A stretch of DNA of 64,000 nucleotides, taken from NCBI GenBank assembly GCA_001804705.1, contig MHAY01000002.1:20183-84182 (forward strand), in the 5' to 3' direction. This DNA comes from Ignavibacteria bacterium RIFOXYC2_FULL_35_21. Its GTDB lineage: Bacteria; Bacteroidota; Ignavibacteria; Kapaibacteriales; UBA2268. A model generated the notes under the pieces. That model was given only the letters and a program-made list of their open reading frames with translations, did no database searches and was not told the origin of the DNA. Both the position numbers and the translations under genes were made by a program. Below are positions 43,447 through 55,577 of the stretch, in pieces (position 1 is the first letter of the stretch; every line of letters begins with the position of its first letter).

Positions 43447-46400
43447 TTGAAAAATTTATTTTCATTATTCGTTTCAATAATAATAATATCAACGTCAGTA
43501 AATTTATTTTCGCTGACTACAAATAAAATAGGAAATCCCCCTGAATCCCCCTTTAATAAAGGGGGAAATTCAAGAACAATTTCAGATTGTCTCAGGCAAA
43601 TTGATAATAAAGACAAGGAAGGGAGGCATCTTTACTATTCTGATAAAATTTATATCAAACTTAAAAAAGATGCTAAAGCTTTTTTAAAAACTTCGGATGA
43701 ACTGCAAGGAACTGTTAACTACAGATTTGGTATTAGCAGTATTGATGAAAAACTCCTGAAGTATGGTGTAAAAACTAATAAGACATTCAAACAAAGAAAA
43801 GAGTTACTTCAAAAAAATAAAGACCATATTCAATCTACAAAGCAGGAATTACCTGACCTTTCGAGAATCTATACATTAGTATTGTCAGGAGTAACTCCTG
43901 ACAGGGATGGGTGGAATAAAATCAGAAAAGTTTTGAAGGAGTTTGCTGATGACCCGAATATCGAGTATGCAGAACCTGTTCCTATCAGGTATTTACTTGA
44001 AATACCGAACGATTCACTTTACAGCCGGCAGCAGCATTTACCTCAAATTAAAGCTGATTCGGCTTGGGATGTGTTTAAAGGAGAAGATGGAACTAAGGAA
44101 ATAATAATTGGTATTAGCGATACAGGTGTCGAATGGGACCATCCTGATTTAATGCGAAATCTGAAACAAAATTTAGGTGAAGATGCAGACGGTGACGGGC
44201 ATGTGATAGAGTATAGTGAAAACGACAGTGCATGGGTGTTGGACCCGGGTGATACAAACCATATTGATGATGACGGTAACGGATACGTTGATGACTTTAT
44301 CGGCTGGGACTTCCTTACGGATTGGACAAGCAAGGGAGAAGGGAATGATCCATGGGATTACAACAGCCACGGAACTCATGTATCAGGAATTGCAGCCGGT
44401 GTTACAAATAATGATTCTGGAATTGCATCAATAAGTTACAATGTGAAATTTTTACCTACATCACATTCATCACAAAGTTATAATAATATATATAAAGGAT
44501 ATGAAGGCATTGTTTATCTTGCAGAAAACGGTGCAGATGTGATTAATTGCAGTTGGGGCGGTGGTGGTTATTCTGCCGCAGAAGCGGAGTCAATTGCTTA
44601 TGCAACAGGATTAGGTGCCATACTTGTCATTGCTGCAGGAAATGATAATAGCGATGAGCATTTCTATCCTGCATATTATCCCAATGTAATAAGCGTAGCC
44701 TCGGTTGGCGTTAACGACAGAAAAGCAAATTATTCAAATTATGGAATTGGTGTTGATATTGCAGCACCGGGAGGTGATTATGGTAACGGTGGTGGTATTT
44801 TAAGTACCTTATTGAATCACAGTTACGGAAGCTACCAGGGTACATCAATGGCAAGTCCTGTGGCGGCAGGGTGTATGGGATTTCTTAAGGCATTTCATCC
44901 TGATTGGTCAATTGCACAACTTGAAACACAATTTTTTGGTACCGCCGATAATATTGATTCGATGAATGCTAATTATATAAATAAACTTGGTGCAGGAAGG
45001 GTAAATCCGTATAGGTCACTGATTGAAACCAATCCTTCGATTCCAAAAAAATTAAGATTAGAACTTTACAGGGTGGTAACTAATGATTCCCTATCTGATA
45101 ATGACGGAGCTTTGGAACCCGGAGATACTGTAAATATAGGATTTGTAATTAGAAATTATACTCATTTGTTAACTTCTAATTCAGTCAATTTTACACTTGA
45201 GTCTCTCGACCCGGATATTGAAGTAATTAAAAATTCATATACAGGAAGTGTTAATCCGGATGGATACTCTGAGATTCCACCAGTATTTGAGGTTAAAATT
45301 TCAGAATCAGCAGAAGCAAGGTTCGCAAAACTAAGATTGAAAACTGCCTCCGATAATGAAGAAATTGTTTACGGAAGCTCCATGGATTTTGAAATTCCTA
45401 TTTCAACCGGTGGTGTTCTTGTGTGGGAAGGGATACCAATGCGGGGATTCAGTGGTTCATTTATCAGGGATTTTCTTAAAGAACAGGGAGTAAAAGTAAC
45501 TTATGGTAATGTATTTCCGACAACATTATTTGGTTATGATGCGGTTTTTCTTTCATTCGGAAGTATAGGCTCTACCGAAACCGGAGCTTCAATGGGGCTT
45601 ACCAGCTTCGATGACTGGATGGCAGATGTAGTAAAGAATTATTTATTAGATGGCGGCAAAGTTTATATTGAAGGTACTGAGATTTTTGGGTGGGACCAGA
45701 GAAATAATTCTGAATTACTTGGTTTATTCGGAATAAAAAGCGGTGATGACGGTGAAAACTATGTAATACTTGATACATTGGAGGGTAATTCATCTGCACT
45801 AACAATTAATATGGAATTTATAGGGTCACATGCTTCCATGTTCCGTTCGATTGATACAGTCATCCCTGATGATAATGGATATAGTTCTTTTTACCAGCCC
45901 GGATACGGAACAGTTTCAGTTCAAAACATCGGTTTTTATAACCAGAAAACATTTTACAGTGCCTATCCGATTGCGGAATTGAATGACCATGCACAGCCAA
46001 GTACAAGGTATGAGCTTGTTTCACGCATTATGAATTTCTTAGGTATTCCGATAGATTATACAGTTCCTTATTTTACAGCTCAGCCAATTACTGGACATGC
46101 TCCAATGGAAATCAGTTTTCAGGATAAATCTTTAACTACCAAACCGATTGATAGCTGGTATTGGGATTTTGGCGATAATTCGGGTAATTCAAACGAAAAA
46201 AATCCGGATTGGACTTATGTTAATCCCGGTACTTATGATGCAAAAATGACGATTACAAGAAACATTAAAAATTATGATACAACGAAAAGTGTATATATAT
46301 TTGATGGGGAAAGCGCCCTCGACTTTAATGGAAGTAGCGGCTATGCACAGGTTCAACCAAATACACCTATTAATTTTTTCAATAAGCTTACAATCGAAGC

Positions 46401-48315
46401 GTGGATAAAGCCTCGAAGCGGCGGCAGGGGCTATTTCGGCAGAATAGCCGACAAAACTAATTTCATGTTTTACATTGCCGGTGACAGATCAATTCGTTTT
46501 ACATTTACTAATGACAGCAATAAAACATCAAATGTATTTACAGATAGATTTAAATTGAATTTTAATGTTTGGCAGCATGTAGCTGTTACTTATGATGGCG
46601 ATAGTATTGTGAAATTCTATGTAAATGGAAAAAATATTAACGATACATTATTCATTACTCAAAATCAACCCAGAGGATTAATAAAAAGAACTACTAATAA
46701 TCTGCTTATTTTCGGGAATAACTCTAATTATAACAGGCCATTCGATGGTGCAATTGATGAAATCAGAATGTGGAGTGTAGAGAGGACCCAACAGGAATTG
46801 ATTAAGAATATGAATACGATTCTTAATGGAGATGAGTTTGGCCTTGCAGGATATTGGCGGTTTCAGGAGGGGAAAGGTTCAGAAACAGAAGATGAAACTC
46901 AATATAATGATATTGCATCTGTTTACTCAGATTGGCGGCAGGGATGGCATAGTGGTTATATTAAATCACAGCCTGTGAGTCAGTTATTATGCCAAGGGCA
47001 GGATGCATCATTTTCAATTAATGCCGTTGGCGGAGAAAAATCATTAACGTATAAATGGTATAAGGACGAGCAGCCTTTAACAGGTGATAGCAGGGTAGTC
47101 GGTGTTGATTCAACAACTCTTGTGGTGAATAACATCATAAAAAGCGATGAAGGAAACTATTTTGTTGTAATCACCGCTATTCCGGGTAATATAAAAACAT
47201 CATCGGATACTGTAGAGTTAAAAGCTAAGGTTAATGTAACTTTACAGCGAGAAGAACCTTTAAGAGAAATAAAAGTTGATGATAGGGGAGAAATGCTTCT
47301 TTCTGTAGATGCAACAGGTGAGGCACCTATTTTTTATAAATGGTATAAAAATGATGTCCTGATACCGGGAGCCGATAATTCTTCATTCAGGAAATTTCCT
47401 TTTATAAAACAAGATGAAGGACGTTATTACTGTATGGTTTCAAACCAGTGTAATAATGTGGTTTCGGACACTTTTAATGTTAAACTTAATGCCGTATCAA
47501 TTGACACACAACCTTTGGAGCAATCGGTTTGCGAAGAACAAGATGCAACCTTTACAATATTAGTTTACGATGCAGGTAAGACATTATCATATCAATGGTA
47601 TAAAGATAATCAGCTTTTAGTCAATGGGAGCAGAATTTCAGGGATTGATTCATCAACGCTTCGAATAAATAATACTATCGAACAGGACGAAGGAAATTAT
47701 TATGCACAAATAATTGCTAATCCCGGCAATATTCAGTTGAATACAAATTCTGCATTCTTAACGATCAAGGACAGTGCATCTGTCCAAAAGAGCGATTCGA
47801 TAAGAAAAGTCAGGGTGAAAGAAGGTGATGATTTGCTATTAACTGTAGAAGCTTCAGGGGAGGCTCCGCTAAGTTATAAGTGGTATAAAGATGATGTAGA
47901 GATTCCCGGCACAGATAGTTCAACTTACTTCAAATCACCTTTCGCAAAAGAGGATGCAGGATTATACTATTGCATAGTATCGAACGAGTGCAATTCGGCT
48001 ATTTCAGATACTTTCGATGTTATTCTAAGATATACATCTGTTGATGATTATACAACTGATGAATTAATAAAAGTATATCCGAATCCTTTTAACGGTATAA
48101 CTACATTTTATCTGAGCCTTCAAATACCGCATTCAGTAAGGCTTGTGATTAATGATATTCTTGGCAATGAAGTATCGGAAATAACCAATCAGAAGTTAGA
48201 AGCGGGATTACATAGATACAATTTCAATGCTGAAGGATTATCGAGCGGAATATATTTTTATTCTCTGAATATTGAGGGTAAGAAAATAACAGGATTGTTG
48301 AATTTAATTAAATAA
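43447..48315 (+). CDS. Giant T9SS-secreted subtilisin-like (S8) peptidase with PKD, LamG and four Ig-like domains
   Basis: TTG start preceded by agggag. Signal peptide. S8 triad contexts SDTGVEWDHPDL, HGTHVSGIAAG and GTSMASPVAAG. PKD (WYWDFGDNSGNS...GTYDAKMTIT). LamG (LTIEAWIKP...FDGAIDEIRMWS). Four repeats of (Y[KQ]WYKD...DEGNY). C-terminal KVYPNPFNGITTFYLSL...GIYFYSLNIEGK sorting domain. Confidence 0.88.
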   Translation: MKNLFSLFVSIIIISTSVNLFSLTTNKIGNPPESPFNKGGNSRTISDCLRQIDNKDKEGRHLYYSDKIYIKLKKDAKAFLKTSDELQGTVNYRFGISSIDEKLLKYGVKTNKTFKQRKELLQKNKDHIQSTKQELPDLSRIYTLVLSGVTPDRDGWNKIRKVLKEFADDPNIEYAEPVPIRYLLEIPNDSLYSRQQHLPQIKADSAWDVFKGEDGTKEIIIGISDTGVEWDHPDLMRNLKQNLGEDADGDGHVIEYSENDSAWVLDPGDTNHIDDDGNGYVDDFIGWDFLTDWTSKGEGNDPWDYNSHGTHVSGIAAGVTNNDSGIASISYNVKFLPTSHSSQSYNNIYKGYEGIVYLAENGADVINCSWGGGGYSAAEAESIAYATGLGAILVIAAGNDNSDEHFYPAYYPNVISVASVGVNDRKANYSNYGIGVDIAAPGGDYGNGGGILSTLLNHSYGSYQGTSMASPVAAGCMGFLKAFHPDWSIAQLETQFFGTADNIDSMNANYINKLGAGRVNPYRSLIETNPSIPKKLRLELYRVVTNDSLSDNDGALEPGDTVNIGFVIRNYTHLLTSNSVNFTLESLDPDIEVIKNSYTGSVNPDGYSEIPPVFEVKISESAEARFAKLRLKTASDNEEIVYGSSMDFEIPISTGGVLVWEGIPMRGFSGSFIRDFLKEQGVKVTYGNVFPTTLFGYDAVFLSFGSIGSTETGASMGLTSFDDWMADVVKNYLLDGGKVYIEGTEIFGWDQRNNSELLGLFGIKSGDDGENYVILDTLEGNSSALTINMEFIGSHASMFRSIDTVIPDDNGYSSFYQPGYGTVSVQNIGFYNQKTFYSAYPIAELNDHAQPSTRYELVSRIMNFLGIPIDYTVPYFTAQPITGHAPMEISFQDKSLTTKPIDSWYWDFGDNSGNSNEKNPDWTYVNPGTYDAKMTITRNIKNYDTTKSVYIFDGESALDFNGSSGYAQVQPNTPINFFNKLTIEAWIKPRSGGRGYFGRIADKTNFMFYIAGDRSIRFTFTNDSNKTSNVFTDRFKLNFNVWQHVAVTYDGDSIVKFYVNGKNINDTLFITQNQPRGLIKRTTNNLLIFGNNSNYNRPFDGAIDEIRMWSVERTQQELIKNMNTILNGDEFGLAGYWRFQEGKGSETEDETQYNDIASVYSDWRQGWHSGYIKSQPVSQLLCQGQDASFSINAVGGEKSLTYKWYKDEQPLTGDSRVVGVDSTTLVVNNIIKSDEGNYFVVITAIPGNIKTSSDTVELKAKVNVTLQREEPLREIKVDDRGEMLLSVDATGEAPIFYKWYKNDVLIPGADNSSFRKFPFIKQDEGRYYCMVSNQCNNVVSDTFNVKLNAVSIDTQPLEQSVCEEQDATFTILVYDAGKTLSYQWYKDNQLLVNGSRISGIDSSTLRINNTIEQDEGNYYAQIIANPGNIQLNTNSAFLTIKDSASVQKSDSIRKVRVKEGDDLLLTVEASGEAPLSYKWYKDDVEIPGTDSSTYFKSPFAKEDAGLYYCIVSNECNSAISDTFDVILRYTSVDDYTTDELIKVYPNPFNGITTFYLSLQIPHSVRLVINDILGNEVSEITNQKLEAGLHRYNFNAEGLSSGIYFYSLNIEGKKITGLLNLIK
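43533..43570. repeat. Family A REP inside the S8 peptidase CDS
   Basis: aaatccccctgaatccccctttaataaagggggaaatt is the reverse-orientation equivalent of the intergenic copy at 25021-25058. It is translated as GNPPESPFNKGGN, directly after the signal peptide. Confidence 0.85.
43883..43903. repeat. Family B palindrome inside the S8 peptidase CDS
   Basis: tgtcaggagtaactcctgaca, translated as LSGVTPDR in the pro-region. Confidence 0.85.
48070..48312 (+). other. T9SS C-terminal sorting domain of the S8 peptidase
   Basis: The last ~80 aa begin KVYPNPF and end ...GIYFYSLNIEGKKITGLLNLIK. Confidence 0.8.
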
Positions 48316-48361: not shown

Positions 48362-50470
48362 TTATTGTTTGAATAATTCCTCCACTCCCTTTGTTCTGCC
48401 TGTGTTGACTATGAGTATTTTTGAGGATTTGGGGATTGAGTCTTTCATTTGGAGGAGCAATGCGAGGCCAGCCATGCCCGAAGGCTCGAATTTTATTTTT
48501 TGTGATGATGCGATTTCAATTGCACGGTCAACATTACTTTCATCAACATTGTAGATGCCTGTCATTTGCCCAACGCAGTCGTATTCTTCTTTCAATTCAA
48601 CTATGTATTTTTTGAATGAATCGAGTGAAGGAAGAAAACTTGAGAATAATTTATCAAGCCGTGAATTAGGCTTGTTCGTAGAAGCTCCTATGAAACTGCA
48701 TTTCTTCAAAGTATTGACATCGCTGAAAAAGCGAGGGTCGTGCTTTGCAACGAATGAATTGAAGTATTCGATTTTCACTATGTTGAGGACATTGATAAAC
48801 AAATCACCGGTGCCGAAAGGAATGAAACAATAATCAGGCTTTTCACGTAGGATTTCGTAGCTCATCCAGTCGTAGTAATTGTCGTGTGTAGGGTCGAGAA
48901 CTTCGCGGTAAGTTATGTCAATTCCGTTTTGATTGCTGGTAATTTCTTTAATTTCATCTGATGTCAACAGTTTTTCGGACAAGTCGCATTGATATAGTTC
49001 GCATCCGATTTGTGTGATTGATTCTTTAATACCGTTATTCAGCCTGTTGTCAACGAGTACTTTTAATCGAGTCGGAATTTTGAAAAGATTAAATAGATGC
49101 TGGATAGCAATAGCCGCACTTCCGGAGGAGATGATGGACATCTGGGGAAGAGAGTCCTGGTTTTTGTACTTCAGGCTTTCAATCAATGACTTGTATTTAA
49201 TAACAACTTCCCAAGCCATCCTGTCTTTGTGTGTGCCTGTCGGATTTGTGCTTTCATCTTTGAGCCACATATTTGAAAAGCCGGGTATATGGATTTTGTA
49301 AGTTTCGGAAGCAGGAAACTTTGGCGTATAAAACGGCTCAGGCGGAAACTCCGGTTTATTTGGATTATTTGTTGAAGGAATTTTTATTCTCTTGTAAGTT
49401 AATTCAAGTGAAGAGCTGATTATATGCGGCTTTGTCAGCTTTGGCAATAAGGCTGTTAGCTCTTCATATTTGTTTATTTTATTGAGTAAAATTTCATAGT
49501 ATATTTTATGCTGATTTTCACGAATGATATCGAGAAGGTCATGAAGCTTTTCGATGATTTTCTTGATTTCATCAAACTCTGTACGCAGCTTTTTATAAAA
49601 TTCTTTTTCTTTTTTGTCGCTGATTAGCAGCTTATGATTTTTTTCGAGTTTTTCTATTCGCAATTTCCAATACTTAAGCAATTCCGACCTGCCGAGAGAA
49701 TCGAATAAATTAAAATCACCTTCGTAAACATCTTTGAGAAGGATGTGGAATGTGTGGCTGAGATATAAGTCCGGGTGGAACTTTGTCAGGTCAATAAGTT
49801 CCCTGAGGCAGTTCTCATTTTGAAGGAAATCACGGCTGATAATAATAAATACCTGCTCGTTTGAATCGAGGCCATTGTACAGTTCAAGCAAAGAGCCTTT
49901 GCTGAAAGTTTGTGAATTCCTGATTTCGGTTTCGACAATTATATCAAATTTATCTTTCAGGTAAGCACCAATTTTTTCGGATTCGCTCATATTATTGAGT
50001 GTCGAAGAAATAATTACTTTTAATTTTTGAGAGGGTGCTTTATAAACAGAAAAATCTTCTAATAATTTTTTTTCAAATCTTTTCTGGTCAAATCTTTTTC
50101 TTCCATGAGAAAAAAGATAGCAAATATCAATGTTGTATTCCTGAAATTGCAGGTTCTTGGCTTCTTTGTTAGTGTATAATAGGTTTCTGAAGAAAGTATT
50201 ACCCGGAACAATTTCGTAGTCGGGTAAATCCTGAATTTTAATATCGGTGTTCTGCTGTTCTTCAATTTCTTTAAGTTTATTAATAATTATTTCCCGAAGC
50301 TCTTCGTAGTTGGGTAGGTGGGCATTGAATTTTTTTGTACCGCCTTCGGATTCATATTTCTCACGGATTTTTTGCCTGAGCTTGTCCAGTTCTTCTTTGT
50401 CAACTTTAATCCAGCCGCTTTTAAGTATAATTTCCTGTTTCATTATTTCATTATTATTGATTTTACTCAA
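48362..50470 (-). CDS. Multidomain protein: unknown N-terminal domain + TIR-like domain + coiled coil + fold-type-II PLP-dependent enzyme domain
   Basis: See the domain features and finding below. TIR-like order KVIISS / DIIVETEI / GSLLELYNGL / VFIIISRDFLQNENCLRELIDL. PLP-enzyme motifs WLKDESTNPTGTHKDRMA, SSGSAAIAIQ, IPFGTGDLF. Confidence 0.6.
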   Translation of the reverse strand: MSKINNNEIMKQEIILKSGWIKVDKEELDKLRQKIREKYESEGGTKKFNAHLPNYEELREIIINKLKEIEEQQNTDIKIQDLPDYEIVPGNTFFRNLLYTNKEAKNLQFQEYNIDICYLFSHGRKRFDQKRFEKKLLEDFSVYKAPSQKLKVIISSTLNNMSESEKIGAYLKDKFDIIVETEIRNSQTFSKGSLLELYNGLDSNEQVFIIISRDFLQNENCLRELIDLTKFHPDLYLSHTFHILLKDVYEGDFNLFDSLGRSELLKYWKLRIEKLEKNHKLLISDKKEKEFYKKLRTEFDEIKKIIEKLHDLLDIIRENQHKIYYEILLNKINKYEELTALLPKLTKPHIISSSLELTYKRIKIPSTNNPNKPEFPPEPFYTPKFPASETYKIHIPGFSNMWLKDESTNPTGTHKDRMAWEVVIKYKSLIESLKYKNQDSLPQMSIISSGSAAIAIQHLFNLFKIPTRLKVLVDNRLNNGIKESITQIGCELYQCDLSEKLLTSDEIKEITSNQNGIDITYREVLDPTHDNYYDWMSYEILREKPDYCFIPFGTGDLFINVLNIVKIEYFNSFVAKHDPRFFSDVNTLKKCSFIGASTNKPNSRLDKLFSSFLPSLDSFKKYIVELKEEYDCVGQMTGIYNVDESNVDRAIEIASSQKIKFEPSGMAGLALLLQMKDSIPKSSKILIVNTGRTKGVEELFKQ
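48365..49318 (-). other. PALP (tryptophan-synthase-beta-like) PLP-dependent domain (residues ~385-702)
   Basis: NPTGTHKDR places a Lys (K415) where the family has its PLP lysine. Gly-rich phosphate-binding loop FGTGDL. Confidence 0.65.
49685..50023 (-). other. TIR-like domain (residues ~150-262)
   Basis: Motif order and spacing match bacterial TIR domains. The candidate catalytic Glu is E196. Confidence 0.5.
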
Positions 50471-50540: not shown

Positions 50541-50563
50541 ATTTATAGAAAAAATTTAGAAAA

Positions 50564-50600
50564 CAAAAAAGGATTAACCTTTAGAATTAATCCTTTTTTA
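50564..50600. terminator. Bidirectional-type intrinsic terminator ending the cytochrome operon
   Basis: aaaaaa-aggattaa-(9 nt)-ttaatcct-tttttt. On the minus strand the hairpin is followed by ttttttgtttt. Confidence 0.7.
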
Positions 50601-50615
50601 AAAATTTGTGTTCAA

Positions 50616-50972
50616 CTAATAAACAACCGTAGATAAATTATGCAGCCAGTTACACAAAATATCAAGGTCTTCCTTCTTACCTTTGAAAGCTACTGGATGT
50701 TTTTTATTAATAAGCTTAACCTTTTTTTTCAGGTAATCTTTAATAATTTCTACTTCTAATGAATCACCAACGGTTGACAAATCAGTTAGCGATTTTTTAG
50801 TTGTATCACTACATTCAATAACCTGAGACTTGATGGAATGGCATCTATTGCACTTCATTTCCAAAAAGATAATACTGCCGCTTCTGACAGGATAATCCTG
50901 ACTGATAAGCAAAGAACTGAAAACAAATATTAAAATAAGTGCAACAAAAATATTTAATTTTAAAAATTTCAT
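50616..50972 (-). CDS. Small secreted monoheme c-type cytochrome
   Basis: Signal peptide and a single CNRCH (CxxCH) motif. Confidence 0.6.
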   Translation of the reverse strand: MKFLKLNIFVALILIFVFSSLLISQDYPVRSGSIIFLEMKCNRCHSIKSQVIECSDTTKKSLTDLSTVGDSLEVEIIKDYLKKKVKLINKKHPVAFKGKKEDLDILCNWLHNLSTVVY

Positions 50973-51040: not shown

Positions 51041-51075
51041 ATTCATTCGTAATTCGTAATTCATAATTCGTAATT
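51041..51075. repeat. 7-nt-period microsatellite (aattcgt/aattcat)n abutting a stop codon
   Basis: attcattcgtaattcgtaattcataattcgtaatt. Confidence 0.9.
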
Positions 51076-51445
51076 AATTATTCGGTGCTCCTTTATTAAT
51101 CCAAGCAATAATTTGGTCGGCATCACAGCTACTCAACAGGCTCCTCATTGAACCTCCCGGAATTATAGCATTTTGTAATTTGCCATTATCAACATTTGTT
51201 TTGACATTAGCATAACCATTCAAATCTACACCTCCGGCACTACCATGGCAACTAACACATTTGGATGCTAAAATATTTTGAATAGTAACCGTAAAAGTTA
51301 CATTTACTGTATCACAGCCACCGGGAGGAGGAGGTGCAACATATATTTCATCCTGTTCGCATGATATTAAGAAAGATGATATTGAAATTATTGCAACGAT
51401 TGCAAACAGGCTAAAAATTCTATAATTTTTTATTTTATTTCTCAT
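51074..51445 (-). CDS. Monoheme c-type cytochrome lipoprotein (PSCyt1-like domain)
   Basis: Lipobox FLISC and a Pro-rich linker. IQNILASKCVSCHGSAGGVDL...GGSMR...IIAWINKGA resembles the planctomycete-type cytochrome c domain. Confidence 0.6.
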   Translation of the reverse strand: MRNKIKNYRIFSLFAIVAIISISSFLISCEQDEIYVAPPPPGGCDTVNVTFTVTIQNILASKCVSCHGSAGGVDLNGYANVKTNVDNGKLQNAIIPGGSMRSLLSSCDADQIIAWINKGAPNN

Positions 51446-51495: not shown

Positions 51496-52677
51496 TTAAT
51501 AAAATATATGTAATTGGAATGTCCATTCCGCCGAATAACCCGGCACCTGTTCGCTGTTGTAAATCCTGTATTCCGGAAGCAAATCAATATATGGAAGAAG
51601 ATTTACATGAGCGCCGAATACAAATTGATTAGTATAGAAAGGATGATTTTCAACTTTATATTTTGTTACACCTCTTTCTGCACGGACAAACGGCAAAACA
51701 GCATCTGTAACAGCATAAGTTACTTCAGCAAGAAAATTAAGCGTTAACCTGCTATCCTTTTTCTCAGAACGCATATATTCTGTCATCAAAGCGAGCTGTT
51801 CGGTTAATCCAATATTGAAAAATACGCTTGAAATATAATAATCATCGTTCAATAAATAAGTTCCACCAAAGAAAGTTGTAACTCCATCAATAATATTCGG
51901 AGGTGTAATAAATGCTCTTAAAACAGTTGATACGGAACCTGTGTCAACAACAGGGATAGTAGTATTTGCTTTACTTTTTGTTGTTAACTTAATCATATTT
52001 TTTGTATCAAACATACCAACCGATAGTCCAACCCAATCGAGAGCTTCGTAATCAATTTGAGCTCCGAATTCTGCATAATCACCAGGAATAAGCGGCCTGG
52101 TTTGTCCCTTCCAGATGCCTGTGACTTCTCTGATTAGCATGGTATGGTCATCATACTTAGTTCCGATAGTGGGCTGGAAGTAGCCAACACGCAGTGACGG
52201 CAACTTCTCGGATGGTTTGATATACATGCTTGCAGAATATGGATTCTGCCCTACAAATCTTTTATCGGAAGCAATGTCATAGGCAATGTTGTAAAATCCT
52301 TCGAATCCAAGCCAGTTAAATGGCTGTAAAATTATGAAAGGAGATAGTTGCATTACCATCATATCTCTACCGATAGGTGGTCCCCATCGTGCAGACTGAA
52401 GGCGGAAATCAACTCCAAATGTTGCAACCTCGTTGAAAACTGTATTTGTTTCCATTGCATCGTATAATCCCTGCAAACCAATTGTTCCCGGATTTATAAG
52501 GCTAATATCTTTTCTTGCCATCCAACCGGGCTGAGTGCGGGCTCCACCGCCCTGAGTGTTATAATGACAGCCTATGCACTTTGTACCAAAATTCTGAAGA
52601 ATAGAATACTGAGGCCTTGCATTTGCAAAAGCAATAGTTAACATTAATAAAATTGTAATTAGAAAATATTTTTTCAT
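51496..52677 (-). CDS. Cyc2-like fused monoheme cytochrome-porin (outer-membrane beta-barrel with an N-terminal CxxCH)
   Basis: Signal peptide ...AFANA. The protein's only two Cys residues form CIGCH at residues 34-38, preceded by RPQYSILQNFGTK. The remaining ~350 aa alternate hydrophobic and polar residues and end WTFQLHIFY (an OMP beta-signal-like terminus). Confidence 0.6.
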   Translation of the reverse strand: MKKYFLITILLMLTIAFANARPQYSILQNFGTKCIGCHYNTQGGGARTQPGWMARKDISLINPGTIGLQGLYDAMETNTVFNEVATFGVDFRLQSARWGPPIGRDMMVMQLSPFIILQPFNWLGFEGFYNIAYDIASDKRFVGQNPYSASMYIKPSEKLPSLRVGYFQPTIGTKYDDHTMLIREVTGIWKGQTRPLIPGDYAEFGAQIDYEALDWVGLSVGMFDTKNMIKLTTKSKANTTIPVVDTGSVSTVLRAFITPPNIIDGVTTFFGGTYLLNDDYYISSVFFNIGLTEQLALMTEYMRSEKKDSRLTLNFLAEVTYAVTDAVLPFVRAERGVTKYKVENHPFYTNQFVFGAHVNLLPYIDLLPEYRIYNSEQVPGYSAEWTFQLHIFY

Positions 52678-52779: not shown

Positions 52780-52807
52780 GATTGTCAGGGTCTAAGCCCT
52801 GACAATC
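52780..52807 (-). terminator. Strong hairpin between the hexaheme gene and the cyc2-like gene (terminator/attenuator)
   Basis: gattgtcaggg-tctaag-ccctgacaatc (11-bp perfect stem) with a T-run on the minus strand. A second, weaker hairpin (agcttc...ggagct + T7) follows at about 52741-52772. Confidence 0.6.
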
Positions 52808-52821
52808 TTTTTTTAAGAAAA

Positions 52822-53880
52822 TTATTTGCCTAAATATTGCAAGCCGTTATTAACTAATGCTTTGATGTATGCCGGATTATGAACACCTTTACTGCGGTCT
52901 TTTGCTACGTATAAGTAATTTAAGACTACTTCGACATCAGTCGGATTGGGGAAAGCAACTTTTGCTTGGTCAGCCCTAAAATATTCACCTAATACGTTAT
53001 AACCCTCTGCTGAAACAGCAGCAGTTGTATCTAACCAACCTTTGTCAATCAATGCCTGTCTGTAGATTACAAGTTTGGGTCCAATATCATTTTGAATTGC
53101 TGCCTTACTTATTGTAGTAGAGTCGTGGCAGTTTCTACATTCGACAATCTTGGCAAGATTTGGTGGTGTCATCAAGAATGTATGTCCGCCAGCTGCAGGA
53201 TTTGATGGGTCAGAACCCATGTGGCAGGAAACGCATCCTTTCGGCAATGAAGCATGCTGGTTGATTGTTGGGTATGTATCATCACCTGTTATTTGATATG
53301 GTCCATTCATAGTAACGACATTAGCTACAACGCCATAATGTGGACCAAACCTTGAATATGTTGTTCCGCTGACTCTGCTGATTGTGTCAGGAACTGTACG
53401 TGTAAAAGGACGAGCCTGATGGCATTTCGAACATAAATTGCCATCTTTCTGGTCAATCATTGCACCAGTATGACGAAGAGCAAAACCTGCTGTGATTCTT
53501 CTTGCGAAATCAGTTGTGTCGAAATTCTTGTGAATAGTATGACATGCTTTGCAATTGATTTTTGAGGATGCTTTTGATACAGGGTCATTTTGTCCCAATG
53601 TTGCAGCTTCTGCAAAACCGTCGCCAGTATGACAGCCGCCACAAGCTAATCTGCCGGCTTCTTCTTCATAAATAACACCGGTGTTGTGCCTAGATAGGTG
53701 ATACTGATTAAATTTCAGATTCACATCATCAGCATCAGCACCATGACAAACAGCACATACAATTTCTGCAGATGGCCCTGCAGGCCCTTCGGGTCCTGTA
53801 CAAGAAATAAACATACTTGTTATTCCGAGGACTGTTAAAAGTCCGAATAACTTCCAAATTAGACTTTCAAACTTTTTCAA
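52822..53880 (-). CDS. Hexaheme c-type cytochrome lipoprotein
   Basis: Lipobox MFISC followed by a GPEGPAGPS linker. Six CxxCH motifs: CAVCH, CGGCH, CKACH, CSKCH, CVSCH, CRNCH. Confidence 0.8.
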   Translation of the reverse strand: MKKFESLIWKLFGLLTVLGITSMFISCTGPEGPAGPSAEIVCAVCHGADADDVNLKFNQYHLSRHNTGVIYEEEAGRLACGGCHTGDGFAEAATLGQNDPVSKASSKINCKACHTIHKNFDTTDFARRITAGFALRHTGAMIDQKDGNLCSKCHQARPFTRTVPDTISRVSGTTYSRFGPHYGVVANVVTMNGPYQITGDDTYPTINQHASLPKGCVSCHMGSDPSNPAAGGHTFLMTPPNLAKIVECRNCHDSTTISKAAIQNDIGPKLVIYRQALIDKGWLDTTAAVSAEGYNVLGEYFRADQAKVAFPNPTDVEVVLNYLYVAKDRSKGVHNPAYIKALVNNGLQYLGK

Positions 53881-54227: not shown

Positions 54228-55577
54228 CTAATAACCGAGTTCGGTTAAATGTTTTAATATTTCATCCCGGTAAATATTTAGCATTTCACCGTACCACATA
54301 TCCTGAGGAACTAAAAACAAGGCACCGTATGTATTTGATTCAGAGGGATTGAAATTTGAAGTTGCAATCTGAGTTTCTTCTTCGGGCCTGTACCTATTGT
54401 CAATATCATGGACGACCACAGTACATCCGAATCTGGTAAGTTTTTTTTCTTCAATTGGTGGCCCATCAAAACCGAATAATAGAAGAGGAATCCTGAATTT
54501 AACGATGTATCCGTCAGATGACAATGAAGATGAGGCTTTAATCCAGGCTGAAGCTTCCTTCTGGAATTTGTATAGTTTATCAGAACTGCTGACTTCTCTT
54601 ACGAATGCTTTCTTTTCAAGGAAATCACCGAGAGAAATTTTAAAATTAAATATTCCCTTTTCTTCGTCTGTTTTGAGGCTATTTTTGTTCTGTAAAGCCT
54701 CGACTATATCCTTCTCATTATTATCAGGAGGTTTAATATCGAGCCAAATTTCAATATTATCGGCCGGAATAAAATCGTAATAGTCATATACTACATTATC
54801 ATCTTTTATTTTGATTGTCATATAAATATATTCCTGGTCATAAGCAGAGCTGACCCAAAAGGAACAATCGTCTTCGCCTGACCAGTAATAAGCTCCTTTA
54901 ATAACATAAGTAGTATAATTATCATAAACCTGCGAAGCATAGCCCTCATATATGTTTCTTCCTCTTTGATAGCATGGAATCGAAAGATAGTCTGAATAGA
55001 ACCTGCTTTCATTCTTTATTGTCTTGATATATTTTTCAGTGTTTTTCAAAGTAGAAAAATCCTCATGAGTCTCATGTGTGAAATCTTTGATTCTTTTTGT
55101 AGTAAATTCTTCATTAAGAATGAGAGTTCCGTTCCTGAATGTATAGCCCCTGATAATCCAGTTGAATTGTTTGATTTTTGAAGTAATAAAACAGATATTA
55201 CTCCTGATGGTAACACCGATTTCCAAGGGTAATTCAACATAGTCAAATGGAATTTCAGTGAGATTTGTAAGGAATCCGTCAATATCAACGAAGAAATAAA
55301 CATGTGATGTCTTTTTCTTTTCTGCACTTATCTTAATGGTTAAAGCGACATCATTAAATCCGTCACCGGAAAAATCACCTACATCCCAGCCCCAGATTGA
55401 GTAATCACTTCCCTGAGGTAATTGCTTTTTTATGTCATCAATCAAATCTTCGGCAAAATAAGGTTCAAGTTTTTTTTCAAGCTCAGGGAACCTCATACCT
55501 CCCTGGCTGAAGGAATTTGAGAGTGAACACAGAAATAGCAGTATAAAGTATATAATTTTTTTCATTAATAATTTCAA
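54228..55577 (-). CDS. Hypothetical secreted protein (FG-GAP-like N-terminal motif; CBM9/DOMON-like C-terminal half suspected)
   Basis: Signal peptide. WGWDVGDFSGDGFNDVAL is FG-GAP-like. The C-terminal pattern YDQEYIYMTIKIKDD...DNIEIWLD...VVVHDID resembles CBM9-type sugar-binding folds. Low certainty. Confidence 0.4.
   Translation of the reverse strand: MKLLMKKIIYFILLFLCSLSNSFSQGGMRFPELEKKLEPYFAEDLIDDIKKQLPQGSDYSIWGWDVGDFSGDGFNDVALTIKISAEKKKTSHVYFFVDIDGFLTNLTEIPFDYVELPLEIGVTIRSNICFITSKIKQFNWIIRGYTFRNGTLILNEEFTTKRIKDFTHETHEDFSTLKNTEKYIKTIKNESRFYSDYLSIPCYQRGRNIYEGYASQVYDNYTTYVIKGAYYWSGEDDCSFWVSSAYDQEYIYMTIKIKDDNVVYDYYDFIPADNIEIWLDIKPPDNNEKDIVEALQNKNSLKTDEEKGIFNFKISLGDFLEKKAFVREVSSSDKLYKFQKEASAWIKASSSLSSDGYIVKFRIPLLLFGFDGPPIEEKKLTRFGCTVVVHDIDNRYRPEEETQIATSNFNPSESNTYGALFLVPQDMWYGEMLNIYRDEILKHLTELGY

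Follow-up and report, generated by a model that had tools for sequence, protein, structure and literature searches.

The 64,000-nucleotide stretch of Ignavibacteria bacterium RIFOXYC2_FULL_35_21 analysed here (contig MHAY01000002.1; "the window") carries, at 51496-52677 on the minus strand, a gene for a 393-residue protein that is probably an outer-membrane electron port, with a one-haem N-terminal segment fused to a 16-strand porin, and a member of a family distinct from Cyc2. The kind of protein, a fused monohaem cytochrome-porin, is already known; what is new is a distinct family with its own motifs, partners and taxonomic home. The assignment draws on the open reading frame (ORF) and its translation, on homologue clusters and on the β-barrel in an AlphaFold2 (AF2) model.

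The ORF starts with an ATG at 52677 and ends at 51496 (393 aa and a stop codon), the same coordinates as in a sequence-only reading of the stretch made earlier. Read by eye, residues 1-20 (MKKYFLITILLMLTIAFANA; 52618-52677, minus strand) resemble a Sec signal peptide with a hydrophobic core and an A-x-A site (A-N-A), cleavage at which would place the mature start at R21. The AF2 model has a helix at residues 2-16, within the signal peptide. Cysteine occurs just twice, as C34 and C37, each time within the CIGCH at residues 34-38, which is preceded by RPQYSILQNFGTK and followed by YNTQGGGARTQPGW. Together with the residues leading up to it, the CIGCH forms the mature N-terminal haem motif (residues 20-38, A-R-P-Q-Y-S-I-L-Q-N-F-G-T-K-C-I-G-C-H; 52564-52620, minus strand), delimited by conservation in the family and by alignment to canonical-type Cyc2. 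The C-terminus reads ...WTFQLHIFY. Pfam and NCBIfam scans of the protein assigned no family, and neither database has a model for it.

The family is large and unannotated; at 50% identity it comprises at least 442 clusters, and it is found mainly in bacteria of the Ignavibacteria type. Among 5.8 billion clustered proteins, a search found 107 homologue clusters (33-83% identity), all labelled "hypothetical"; a profile search of 1.84 billion representatives of 50%-identity clusters gave 442 proteins at E ≤ 1e-3, 208 of them at E ≤ 1e-10. Named members come only from metagenome-assembled genomes (MAGs) of Ignavibacteria, Kapabacteria, Bacteroidota and Gemmatimonadota, and a search of the Kapabacteria and Ignavibacteria literature turned up no description of this porin family. 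Residue conservation was counted over 192 full-length members, in the numbering of the window protein. C34, C37 and H38 are invariant (192/192), and every protein has exactly one CxxCH. Around the haem motif, P22 is kept in 186 members, Y, F or M at position 24 in 185, S, A or T at position 25 in 186 and G31 in 183; at the C-terminus, Q388 is kept in 191, H390 in 187 and a terminal Y or F in 185. D90, R92, Q94, M109, R332, E334, E369, R371, Q388 and H390 are nearly invariant and, since they alternate along the strands, face one side. The family consensus directly after the CxxCH is xNxQGGGxRxxxGW.

The AF2 model of the window protein, built from a 50-sequence alignment, has a mean predicted local distance difference test score (pLDDT) of 87.0 and a predicted template modelling score (pTM) of 0.83. 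DSSP assigns 16 long strands between residues 85 and 392; together with the Foldseek matches they define a predicted 16-strand β-barrel at residues 85-393 (51499-52425, minus strand) with an aromatic C-terminus (...QLHIFY). Apart from two loops, one of 35 residues between strands 5 and 6 and one of 24 residues between strands 7 and 8, the strands are joined by short turns and loops, and the extracellular loops are predicted to be very short, save the long one between strands 5 and 6. A family member only 21% identical to the window protein (P0236) is modelled with a pLDDT of 87.2, the same 16 strands and a long strand 5-6 loop with DDHT. Foldseek against the PDB gave 208 matches at E ≤ 1e-3, and the best 50 of these 208 are all outer-membrane porins, the top matches being BpsOmp38 (E 2.8e-10), OprP (2o4v, query TM score (TMq) 0.55), PorB, OmpU and OprO (4rjx, TMq 0.56). 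A sequence search of the PDB gave one weak and uninformative match (8e5f_A, E 0.34), confined to the signal peptide/CxxCH region, and profile searches of the PDB with both families found no solved relative of the window family or of canonical-type Cyc2.

Most of what the sequence-only reading had said of the protein itself holds; it had named no strand, and the gene is on the minus strand. The signal peptide that it described is borne out by eye, its count of two cysteines in a single CIGCH is confirmed in the translation, and the barrel of about 350 residues that it read from the strand pattern is the one now modelled. It had looked to a structure prediction for the barrel and to the relatives for conservation of the CxxCH, and both are found.

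The same data bear on whether the protein is an ordinary diffusion porin whose CxxCH is fortuitous or non-functional, a reading to which we give hardly any weight. In its favour, the best structural matches are ordinary porins, and 9 of 48 distant members have sub-threshold Pfam matches to OMP_b-brl, BBP2 or Porin_4. Against it, the CxxCH keeps a fixed place down to about 21% identity, it holds the only cysteines of the window protein, and genes for redox proteins are conserved neighbours. The motif is not fortuitous because it is invariant in all 192 full-length relatives, and a chance CxxCH in a porin is in effect refuted. An MtrB-type porin was also considered and rejected: the barrel has 16 strands, not 20-26, and the Pfam and NCBIfam scans gave no MtrB-type matches.

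The loop between strands 5 and 6 carries D176-D177-H178-T179 (52141-52152, minus strand), a motif that might supply the distal haem ligand or a metal site. By its position this loop corresponds to loop 3 (L3) of ordinary 16-strand porins, which folds into the lumen. Position 178 is His in 182 of the 192 members and Met in the other 10, with no other residue; D176 is replaced by Cys in nine members, all of them among the ten with M178 (CDMT for DDHT). An exclusive alternation of His and Met is expected of an axial haem ligand, and position 178, as placed in the model, is a putative one. The change from DDHT to CDMT suggests that in these members the haem is ligated differently or another metal is preferred. 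Alternatively, the position could belong to a site for a substrate metal; a modelling preprint on Cyc2 of A. ferrooxidans proposes His/Asp/Asp iron sites within the barrel (10.1101/2021.03.22.436458). The alternation at position 178 offers a specific hypothesis for how a single haem might be held in a small barrel.

The closest known system is Cyc2. Keffer et al. 2021 describe it by a signal peptide, one CXXCH, a 16-strand porin and structural homology to OprO/OprP, by the motif AXPXFAR[Q/K][T/Y] upstream of the haem site, which they call "unique to Cyc2", and by PXL four residues downstream (PMC8406198). Sequences shorter than 365 aa, or without CXXCH or PXFAR[Q/K][T/Y], were excluded in that work, which lists Ralstonia and Burkholderia among the Cyc2-bearing genera (PMC8406198). 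A collection of canonical-type Cyc2 was made by tblastn against plasmids, using an N-terminal consensus as the query. Matches in Ralstonia, Caballeronia, Paraburkholderia, Methylocystis, Ideonella, Polymorphobacter and an Acidithiobacillus plasmid showed 55-77% identity, and these plasmid-derived sequences bear the exact published motif (for example AVPAFARQTGMACMACHVSFPELTPFGRFFK). A scan with a five-sequence alignment, one genome per species, gave 80 more loci, and 81 canonical-type sequences were extracted. The set is without Cluster 1 (Zetaproteobacteria, Gallionellaceae), the chromosomal Cyc2 of Acidithiobacillus and the biochemically characterised proteins.

The window protein has the signal peptide (by eye), the single CXXCH, the length (393 aa, at least 365) and the 16-strand OprO/OprP-like barrel of Cyc2. 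In place of AXPXFAR[Q/K][T/Y] it has A-R-P-Q-Y-S-I-L-Q, with agreement limited to the A, the P, the aromatic and the small residue; I-L-Q stands where Cyc2 has R-[QK]-[TY], the spacer to the Cys is two residues longer than in the canonical type, and the PXL motif four residues after the CXXCH is absent. Distant members of the family have the mature start A-[LI]-P-[RQ]-F-[AS]-L-x-T-G-x-x-CxxCH, with the x6 spacing and register of canonical Cyc2 (A-V-P-S-F-A-R-Q-T-G-x-x-CxxCH), and the two additional spacer residues are found in the subfamily of the window protein (ARPQYSILQNFGTK-C). After the CxxCH, the window family has GGGxRxxxGW and canonical-type Cyc2 has FPELTPFGRxFK. The conserved His and Met residues are M109, H178 and H390 in the window family as against M75 and H306 in canonical-type Cyc2.

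Profile comparison places the similarity between the two families at the N-terminus. With hhalign, the 192 family members and the 81 canonical-type sequences align with 94.5% probability (E 7.5e-8) over 46 columns that cover the signal peptide and the haem motif only; without the signal peptides, the figures are 79% and E 1.6e-5 over 31 columns, starting from residue 1 of both mature proteins. The barrels by themselves gave no meaningful alignment (P 0.086), a global run likewise, and an earlier comparison from small alignments was weak (probability 38%). Specificity was examined on 3,620 ORFs of the collected loci, 242 of which have a CxxCH. At E ≤ 1, a hidden Markov model (HMM) of the family matched the 14 family members, 86 of 86 canonical-type Cyc2 ORFs and none of the approximately 140 other CxxCH ORFs. 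As judged from these alignments, the link between the family and Cyc2 runs through the N-terminal haem motif (A-x-P-x-[FY]-[SA]…G-x-x-CxxCH) only, and it is specific. HMM scores are 236-553 bits within the family and at most 27 bits across families; against the HMM of the 81 canonical-type sequences, a set without Cluster 1 or the characterised proteins, the score is 3.1 bits for the window protein and at most 24 for the other members, on the N-terminal motif only.

The sequence-only reading had assigned the protein to the Cyc2 layout and thought its N-terminus reminiscent of Cyc2. The layout stands (signal peptide, one haem motif, a porin of about 16 strands), and membership of Cyc2 as published is not established, with the motifs absent and the barrel unalignable. 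The resemblance of the N-terminus is supported by the specific profile similarity of the haem motif, although AXPXFAR[Q/K][T/Y] is only half present. The spacing that it gave, P-x-[FY]-[AS]-x6-CxxCH, does not describe the window protein, where eight residues lie between P-x-Y-S and the CxxCH, and against our proxy for the Cyc2 HMM that it proposed, the 81-sequence model without Cluster 1, the protein scores no more than the 3.1 bits given above.

One locus contains both families. In an Ignavibacteriaceae MAG (L080, JBJKPP010000119.1, 3001-6706), a canonical-type Cyc2 of 442 aa (IPSFARQTNLPCSSCH) is followed by a cytochrome c and then by a protein with a twin-arginine translocation (TAT) signal that looks, by eye, like a high-potential iron-sulfur protein (HiPIP); the flanking genes are YceI-like by eye. 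A 375-aa member of the window family adjoins this cluster on the opposite strand. A Pfam YceI gene is also found near a distant family member in L103. Because members of both families adjoin in one genome, the window family is not orthologous to Cyc2, and orthology was rejected. The "Cyc2 homologues" reported in Ignavibacteria (PMC6344600, PMC8478452) may be of the canonical type.

That the window protein is nevertheless a true Cyc2, a divergent orthologue within clusters 1-3 that oxidises Fe2+ and passes the electrons to periplasmic cytochromes c, appears improbable to us. The layout, down to the OprP/OprO-like barrel, would fit, as would the A-x-P-x-aromatic-small motif at the mature N-terminus of both families and the small c-type cytochrome genes downstream, which are also found at canonical-type loci (L001, L002, L004, L005 and L006); identity between the accepted Cyc2 clusters is itself only 15-23%. 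These points are set against the absence of FAR[Q/K][T/Y] and PXL (sequences without the upstream motif were dropped by Keffer et al.), the gap between scores within and across families (for a canonical set without Cluster 1 or the characterised proteins), the presence of both families side by side in L080 and the different positions of the candidate haem ligands.

Convergence deserves somewhat more weight, and we still consider it unlikely. A porin of the Fibrobacterota-Chlorobiota-Bacteroidota (FCB) group would have gained an N-terminal CxxCH separately, and its substrate might be Mn(II), Cu(I), sulfur species or humics. It is conceivable because the motif that links the families is short and the barrels are without sequence similarity that profile comparison can detect. 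The motifs after the CxxCH and the conserved His/Met positions differ, and the DDHT to CDMT subgroup, with softer ligands for harder ones, hints at a variable metal specificity. On the other side, six positions besides the CxxCH agree in register from mature residue 1 or 2 in both families, the family HMM matches all the canonical-type Cyc2 and none of the roughly 140 other cytochromes, and genes of both families adjoin in L080. Judged by this shared N-terminus, the haem module probably has a common origin with that of Cyc2.

The genes around the porin-cytochrome gene of the relatives have a conserved order. In L094, L095, L096 and L098 a hexahaem lipoprotein (360-393 aa) is followed by the porin-cytochrome, a Rieske lipoprotein with a TAT signal (about 160-172 aa), a monohaem cytochrome c (115-128 aa), a 13-haem cytochrome (about 490-510 aa) and a cytochrome b. 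The last gene encodes a cytochrome b alone in L095 (266 aa) and a fusion of cytochrome b with a multihaem domain in L094, L096 and L098 (733-740 aa), the multihaem domain having six CxxCH and one CxxxxCH-type site. By its domain composition the fusion has the architecture of a CbcL/MtoC-type quinol/quinone oxidoreductase; homologues of CbcL/MtoC serve extracellular electron transfer in iron reducers and in iron oxidisers (PMC6295460). L090 has the first four genes of the order, and the last two are absent. An orthologue of the hexahaem lipoprotein lies directly upstream of the porin gene in all five loci (L090 6758-7861, L095 4776-5858, L096 4754-5884 and L098 4766-5878, and in L094). A Rieske gene also adjoins the distant members in L091 and L103, and other distant members, among them a Gemmatimonadota-type group, have no redox neighbours.

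Small hydrophobic proteins (80-108 aa, no Pfam match) adjoin distant family members in L091 (9207-9503), L107 (7163-7405) and L103 (5163-5489). Two of the three are alike at the N-terminus, and no equivalent was noticed in the window.

The window contains only four c-type cytochrome genes in its 64 kb, all adjoining and on the minus strand. The gene at 52822-53880, upstream of that of the porin, encodes a hexahaem c-type cytochrome lipoprotein (352 aa, lipobox FISC, six CxxCH), which matches Pfam Cytochrome_C7 (1.8e-9) and, below threshold, domain II/IV of MtrC/MtrF (1e-5). Collagen-like G-X-Y triplets stand directly after its lipobox Cys, three in the window (GPEGPAGPS), 8-9 in four of the five relatives (for example GPAGKDGATGPAGTKGDAGPAGKDGEG) and five in L094; from their sequence, the triplets could form a trimeric stalk that matches a trimeric porin. 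Downstream of the porin gene, at 51074-51445, is a monohaem cytochrome c lipoprotein (123 aa, one CxxCH, lipobox LISC, linker EQDE...PPPP) with weak matches to Cytochrome_CBB3 and c550/c551. It occupies the slot of the TAT-exported Rieske lipoprotein of the relatives (L090 9289-9774, L094 7257-7754, L095 7272-7754, L096 7201-7695) and has the same lipobox and linker (SCEQDE...PPPP). It looks like the result of a swap of redox domains, Rieske to cytochrome c, on a conserved anchor. Its acidic residues after the Cys resemble the signal for export of surface lipoproteins in Bacteroidota. The second downstream gene (50616-50972) encodes a secreted monohaem cytochrome c of 118 aa with one CxxCH; in L090, L094, L095, L096 and L098 this position is held by a monohaem cytochrome c of 115-128 aa.

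A terminator-like hairpin (52780-52807, minus strand; 11-bp stem, 6-nt loop, TTTTT) lies between the hexahaem and porin genes and folds as RNA with -23.9 kcal/mol (z-score -8.6 against shuffles). The gap between the two genes is about 115-145 bp in four of the five relatives and 26 bp in L094. A second hairpin with a T-run (50563-50600, minus strand; -14.0 kcal/mol, z-score -4.0) follows the last cytochrome gene and is a probable end of the transcription unit. Because the two hairpins frame them, the porin gene and the two cytochrome c genes likely make up one unit, with the hexahaem gene possibly separate or attenuated. A pattern scan for promoters and terminators gave hits at background level and missed both hairpins, which were later found by eye.

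The mechanism that we infer for the window protein is a prediction in several respects: that the haem is attached, that the protein lies in the outer membrane, which residue is the distal ligand, what the partners are and which way the electrons flow. One c-type haem would be covalently bound through C34, C37 and H38 to the mature N-terminal segment of about 64 residues. It would sit in the periplasmic half of the barrel lumen or right at it, with H38 as the proximal ligand and H178 of the strand 5-6 loop as the probable distal ligand, or else M109. In this position the haem would relay electrons across the outer membrane in a single step. The outer partner would be either a dissolved species that enters the pore, such as the Fe2+ proposed for Cyc2, or the hexahaem lipoprotein of the gene immediately upstream. 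The inner partners would be small carriers from the downstream genes: two monohaem cytochromes c in the window, and a Rieske lipoprotein and a cytochrome c in the relatives, where the 13-haem cytochrome and the CbcL/MtoC-type fusion would connect to the quinone pool.

Electron uptake, by oxidation of Fe(II) or of another soluble reductant, is the direction that we favour, with a confidence that falls just below even. The analogy to Cyc2, the small one-haem barrel and the Rieske, HiPIP-like and class-I cytochrome c partners speak for it. The window protein is a possible Fe(II) oxidase. The neighbours leave the direction undecided because Fe(II) oxidisers have an mto cluster built along the same lines (outer-membrane conduit, monohaem cytochrome, MtoC).

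Outward transfer is a less likely but serious competitor. Electrons would run from the CbcL-like protein through periplasmic cytochromes and the porin haem to a hexahaem lipoprotein at the cell surface, for reduction of Fe(III), humics or an electrode. Against this pathway stand the Rieske and HiPIP-type partners, which typically belong to high-potential chains on the uptake side. Moreover, one haem in a 16-strand barrel could not by itself span the distance to a cytochrome on the cell surface; known outward conduits have porins of 20 to 26 strands into which a multihaem protein is inserted (Keffer et al. 2021, PMC8406198). The placing of the hexahaem lipoprotein at the surface is presumed, and the terminator-like hairpin lies between its gene and that of the porin. 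The synteny with the hexahaem lipoprotein and its weak similarity to MtrC/MtrF II/IV, to which the relatives add the 13-haem cytochrome and the cytochrome b fusion, agree with outward transfer. The predicted outer loops are very short, except that between strands 5 and 6, and a partner would thereby have access to the outer face. Fe(III) reducers occur among the Ignavibacteria, which are also enriched on anodes (PMC7399161), and He et al. report homologues of Cyc2 from MAGs of taxa that reduce Fe(III), Ignavibacteriaceae among them (PMC6344600). Another substrate or role takes the remainder of the probability after uptake and outward transfer.

We also put forward, tentatively and as something short of an even prospect, that the window protein is the first recognised member of a second, independent family of fused cytochrome-porins, in which the haem is clamped inside the barrel between the N-terminal CxxCH and a His or Met of L3. 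With collagen-stalked hexahaem and TAT-exported Rieske lipoproteins it would make up a new type of outer-membrane electron conduit, in FCB-group bacteria and Gemmatimonadota that gene surveys of iron cycling now miss.

Several observations weigh against a one-haem electron port with a Cyc2-related haem module. The confidence of the AF2 model is lowest over residues 16-50, where the haem motif sits, and the haem would be placed inside the barrel by topology alone. The link to Cyc2 spans approximately 17 to 31 columns and the barrels are without sequence similarity; the canonical-type HMM does not detect the window protein. Every member of the family is annotated "hypothetical" and comes from a MAG, and no redox genes are found near some distant members (L100, L106 and L107). 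The window is without the Rieske, 13-haem and cytochrome b genes of the relatives and has just the four cytochrome genes. Finally, the hexahaem and porin genes may not be co-transcribed, since a strong terminator-like hairpin intervenes and separate transcription of the hexahaem gene is possible.

The window matches one other assembly (GCA_001802705.1, contig MGZV01000025.1) and one metagenome of the Joint Genome Institute (JGI). A 449-aa secreted protein with a CBM9-like domain (54228-55577, minus strand) is encoded 347 bp upstream of the hexahaem gene on the same strand, and its gene is not kept beside the cluster in the relatives. A 702-aa protein (48362-50470, minus strand) has a C-terminal pyridoxal phosphate (PLP)-dependent domain (PALP, threonine/cysteine synthase-like) and about 390 N-terminal residues without family assignment; PADLOC gave no match to this PLP-enzyme fusion. 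A subtilisin-like protein of 1622 aa (Peptidase_S8; 43447-48315, plus strand) has PKD, LamG and Ig-like domains and a C-terminal sorting domain for type IX secretion, which fits an organism of the FCB group.

Cyc2 is the main genetic marker of microbial Fe(II) oxidation in genomes and metagenomes. Published Cyc2 pipelines use the FAR[Q/K][T/Y] motif and HMMs trained mostly on proteobacterial sequences, and a sister family of the same layout would be invisible or ambiguous to such screens. If the window family carries electrons across the outer membrane, the iron and electron-transfer potential of common organisms of sediments, aquifers and bioreactors is under-counted or mis-assigned. The conserved gene order lays out a concrete candidate pathway, from the hexahaem lipoprotein through to the CbcL-like protein.

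Among known systems, Cyc2 (A. ferrooxidans Cyc2 and Mariprofundus ferrooxydans Cyc2PV-1; clusters 1-3, McAllister 2020, Keffer 2021) shares with the window protein the signal peptide, one CxxCH within about 15 residues of the mature N-terminus, the A-x-P-x-[FY]-[AS] start and a G two residues before the first Cys. Both are about 400 aa long, with a 16-strand barrel that has structural matches to OprP/OprO, and both have small periplasmic redox genes adjoining. The window protein differs in its missing R-[QK]-[TY] and PXL and, in its subfamily, in the spacer longer by two residues; the family differs in a barrel that cannot be aligned by sequence, in the positions of the conserved His and Met, and in its neighbours (hexahaem lipoprotein, TAT-exported Rieske lipoprotein, 13-haem cytochrome and CbcL-like protein). 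Cyc2 is found mainly in Proteobacteria, whereas the named members of the window family belong to the FCB group and the Gemmatimonadota. Cyt572 of Leptospirillum, compared here by description only, is likewise an outer-membrane monohaem cytochrome fused to a barrel, and an Fe(II) oxidase. Unlike the window protein it belongs to the motif-defined Cyc2 set, having been assigned to Cyc2 Cluster 3 by McAllister et al. 2020.

MtrCAB, MtoAB/PioAB and OmbB-OmaB-OmcB of Geobacter transport electrons across the outer membrane, as is predicted for the window protein. Their genes similarly lie in clusters with those of multihaem cytochromes, of an MtoD-like monohaem cytochrome of the periplasm and of an inner-membrane protein of the CbcL/MtoC type, and the multihaem neighbour in the window is a lipoprotein with weak similarity to MtrC domain II/IV. 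The porins of these systems have 20-26 strands around a separate multihaem protein, in contrast to the 16 strands of the window protein and its haem, which would be on the same chain. OprP/OprO and other 16-strand porins have the same predicted fold (Foldseek E values down to 2.8e-10, TM about 0.5-0.56), with 16 strands, a long third loop and a C-terminal aromatic residue. They differ in having neither a haem nor an N-terminal cytochrome segment, and their identity to the window protein is 7-13%. At the level of sequence, the invariant haem motif is what separates the window family from these cofactor-free porins.

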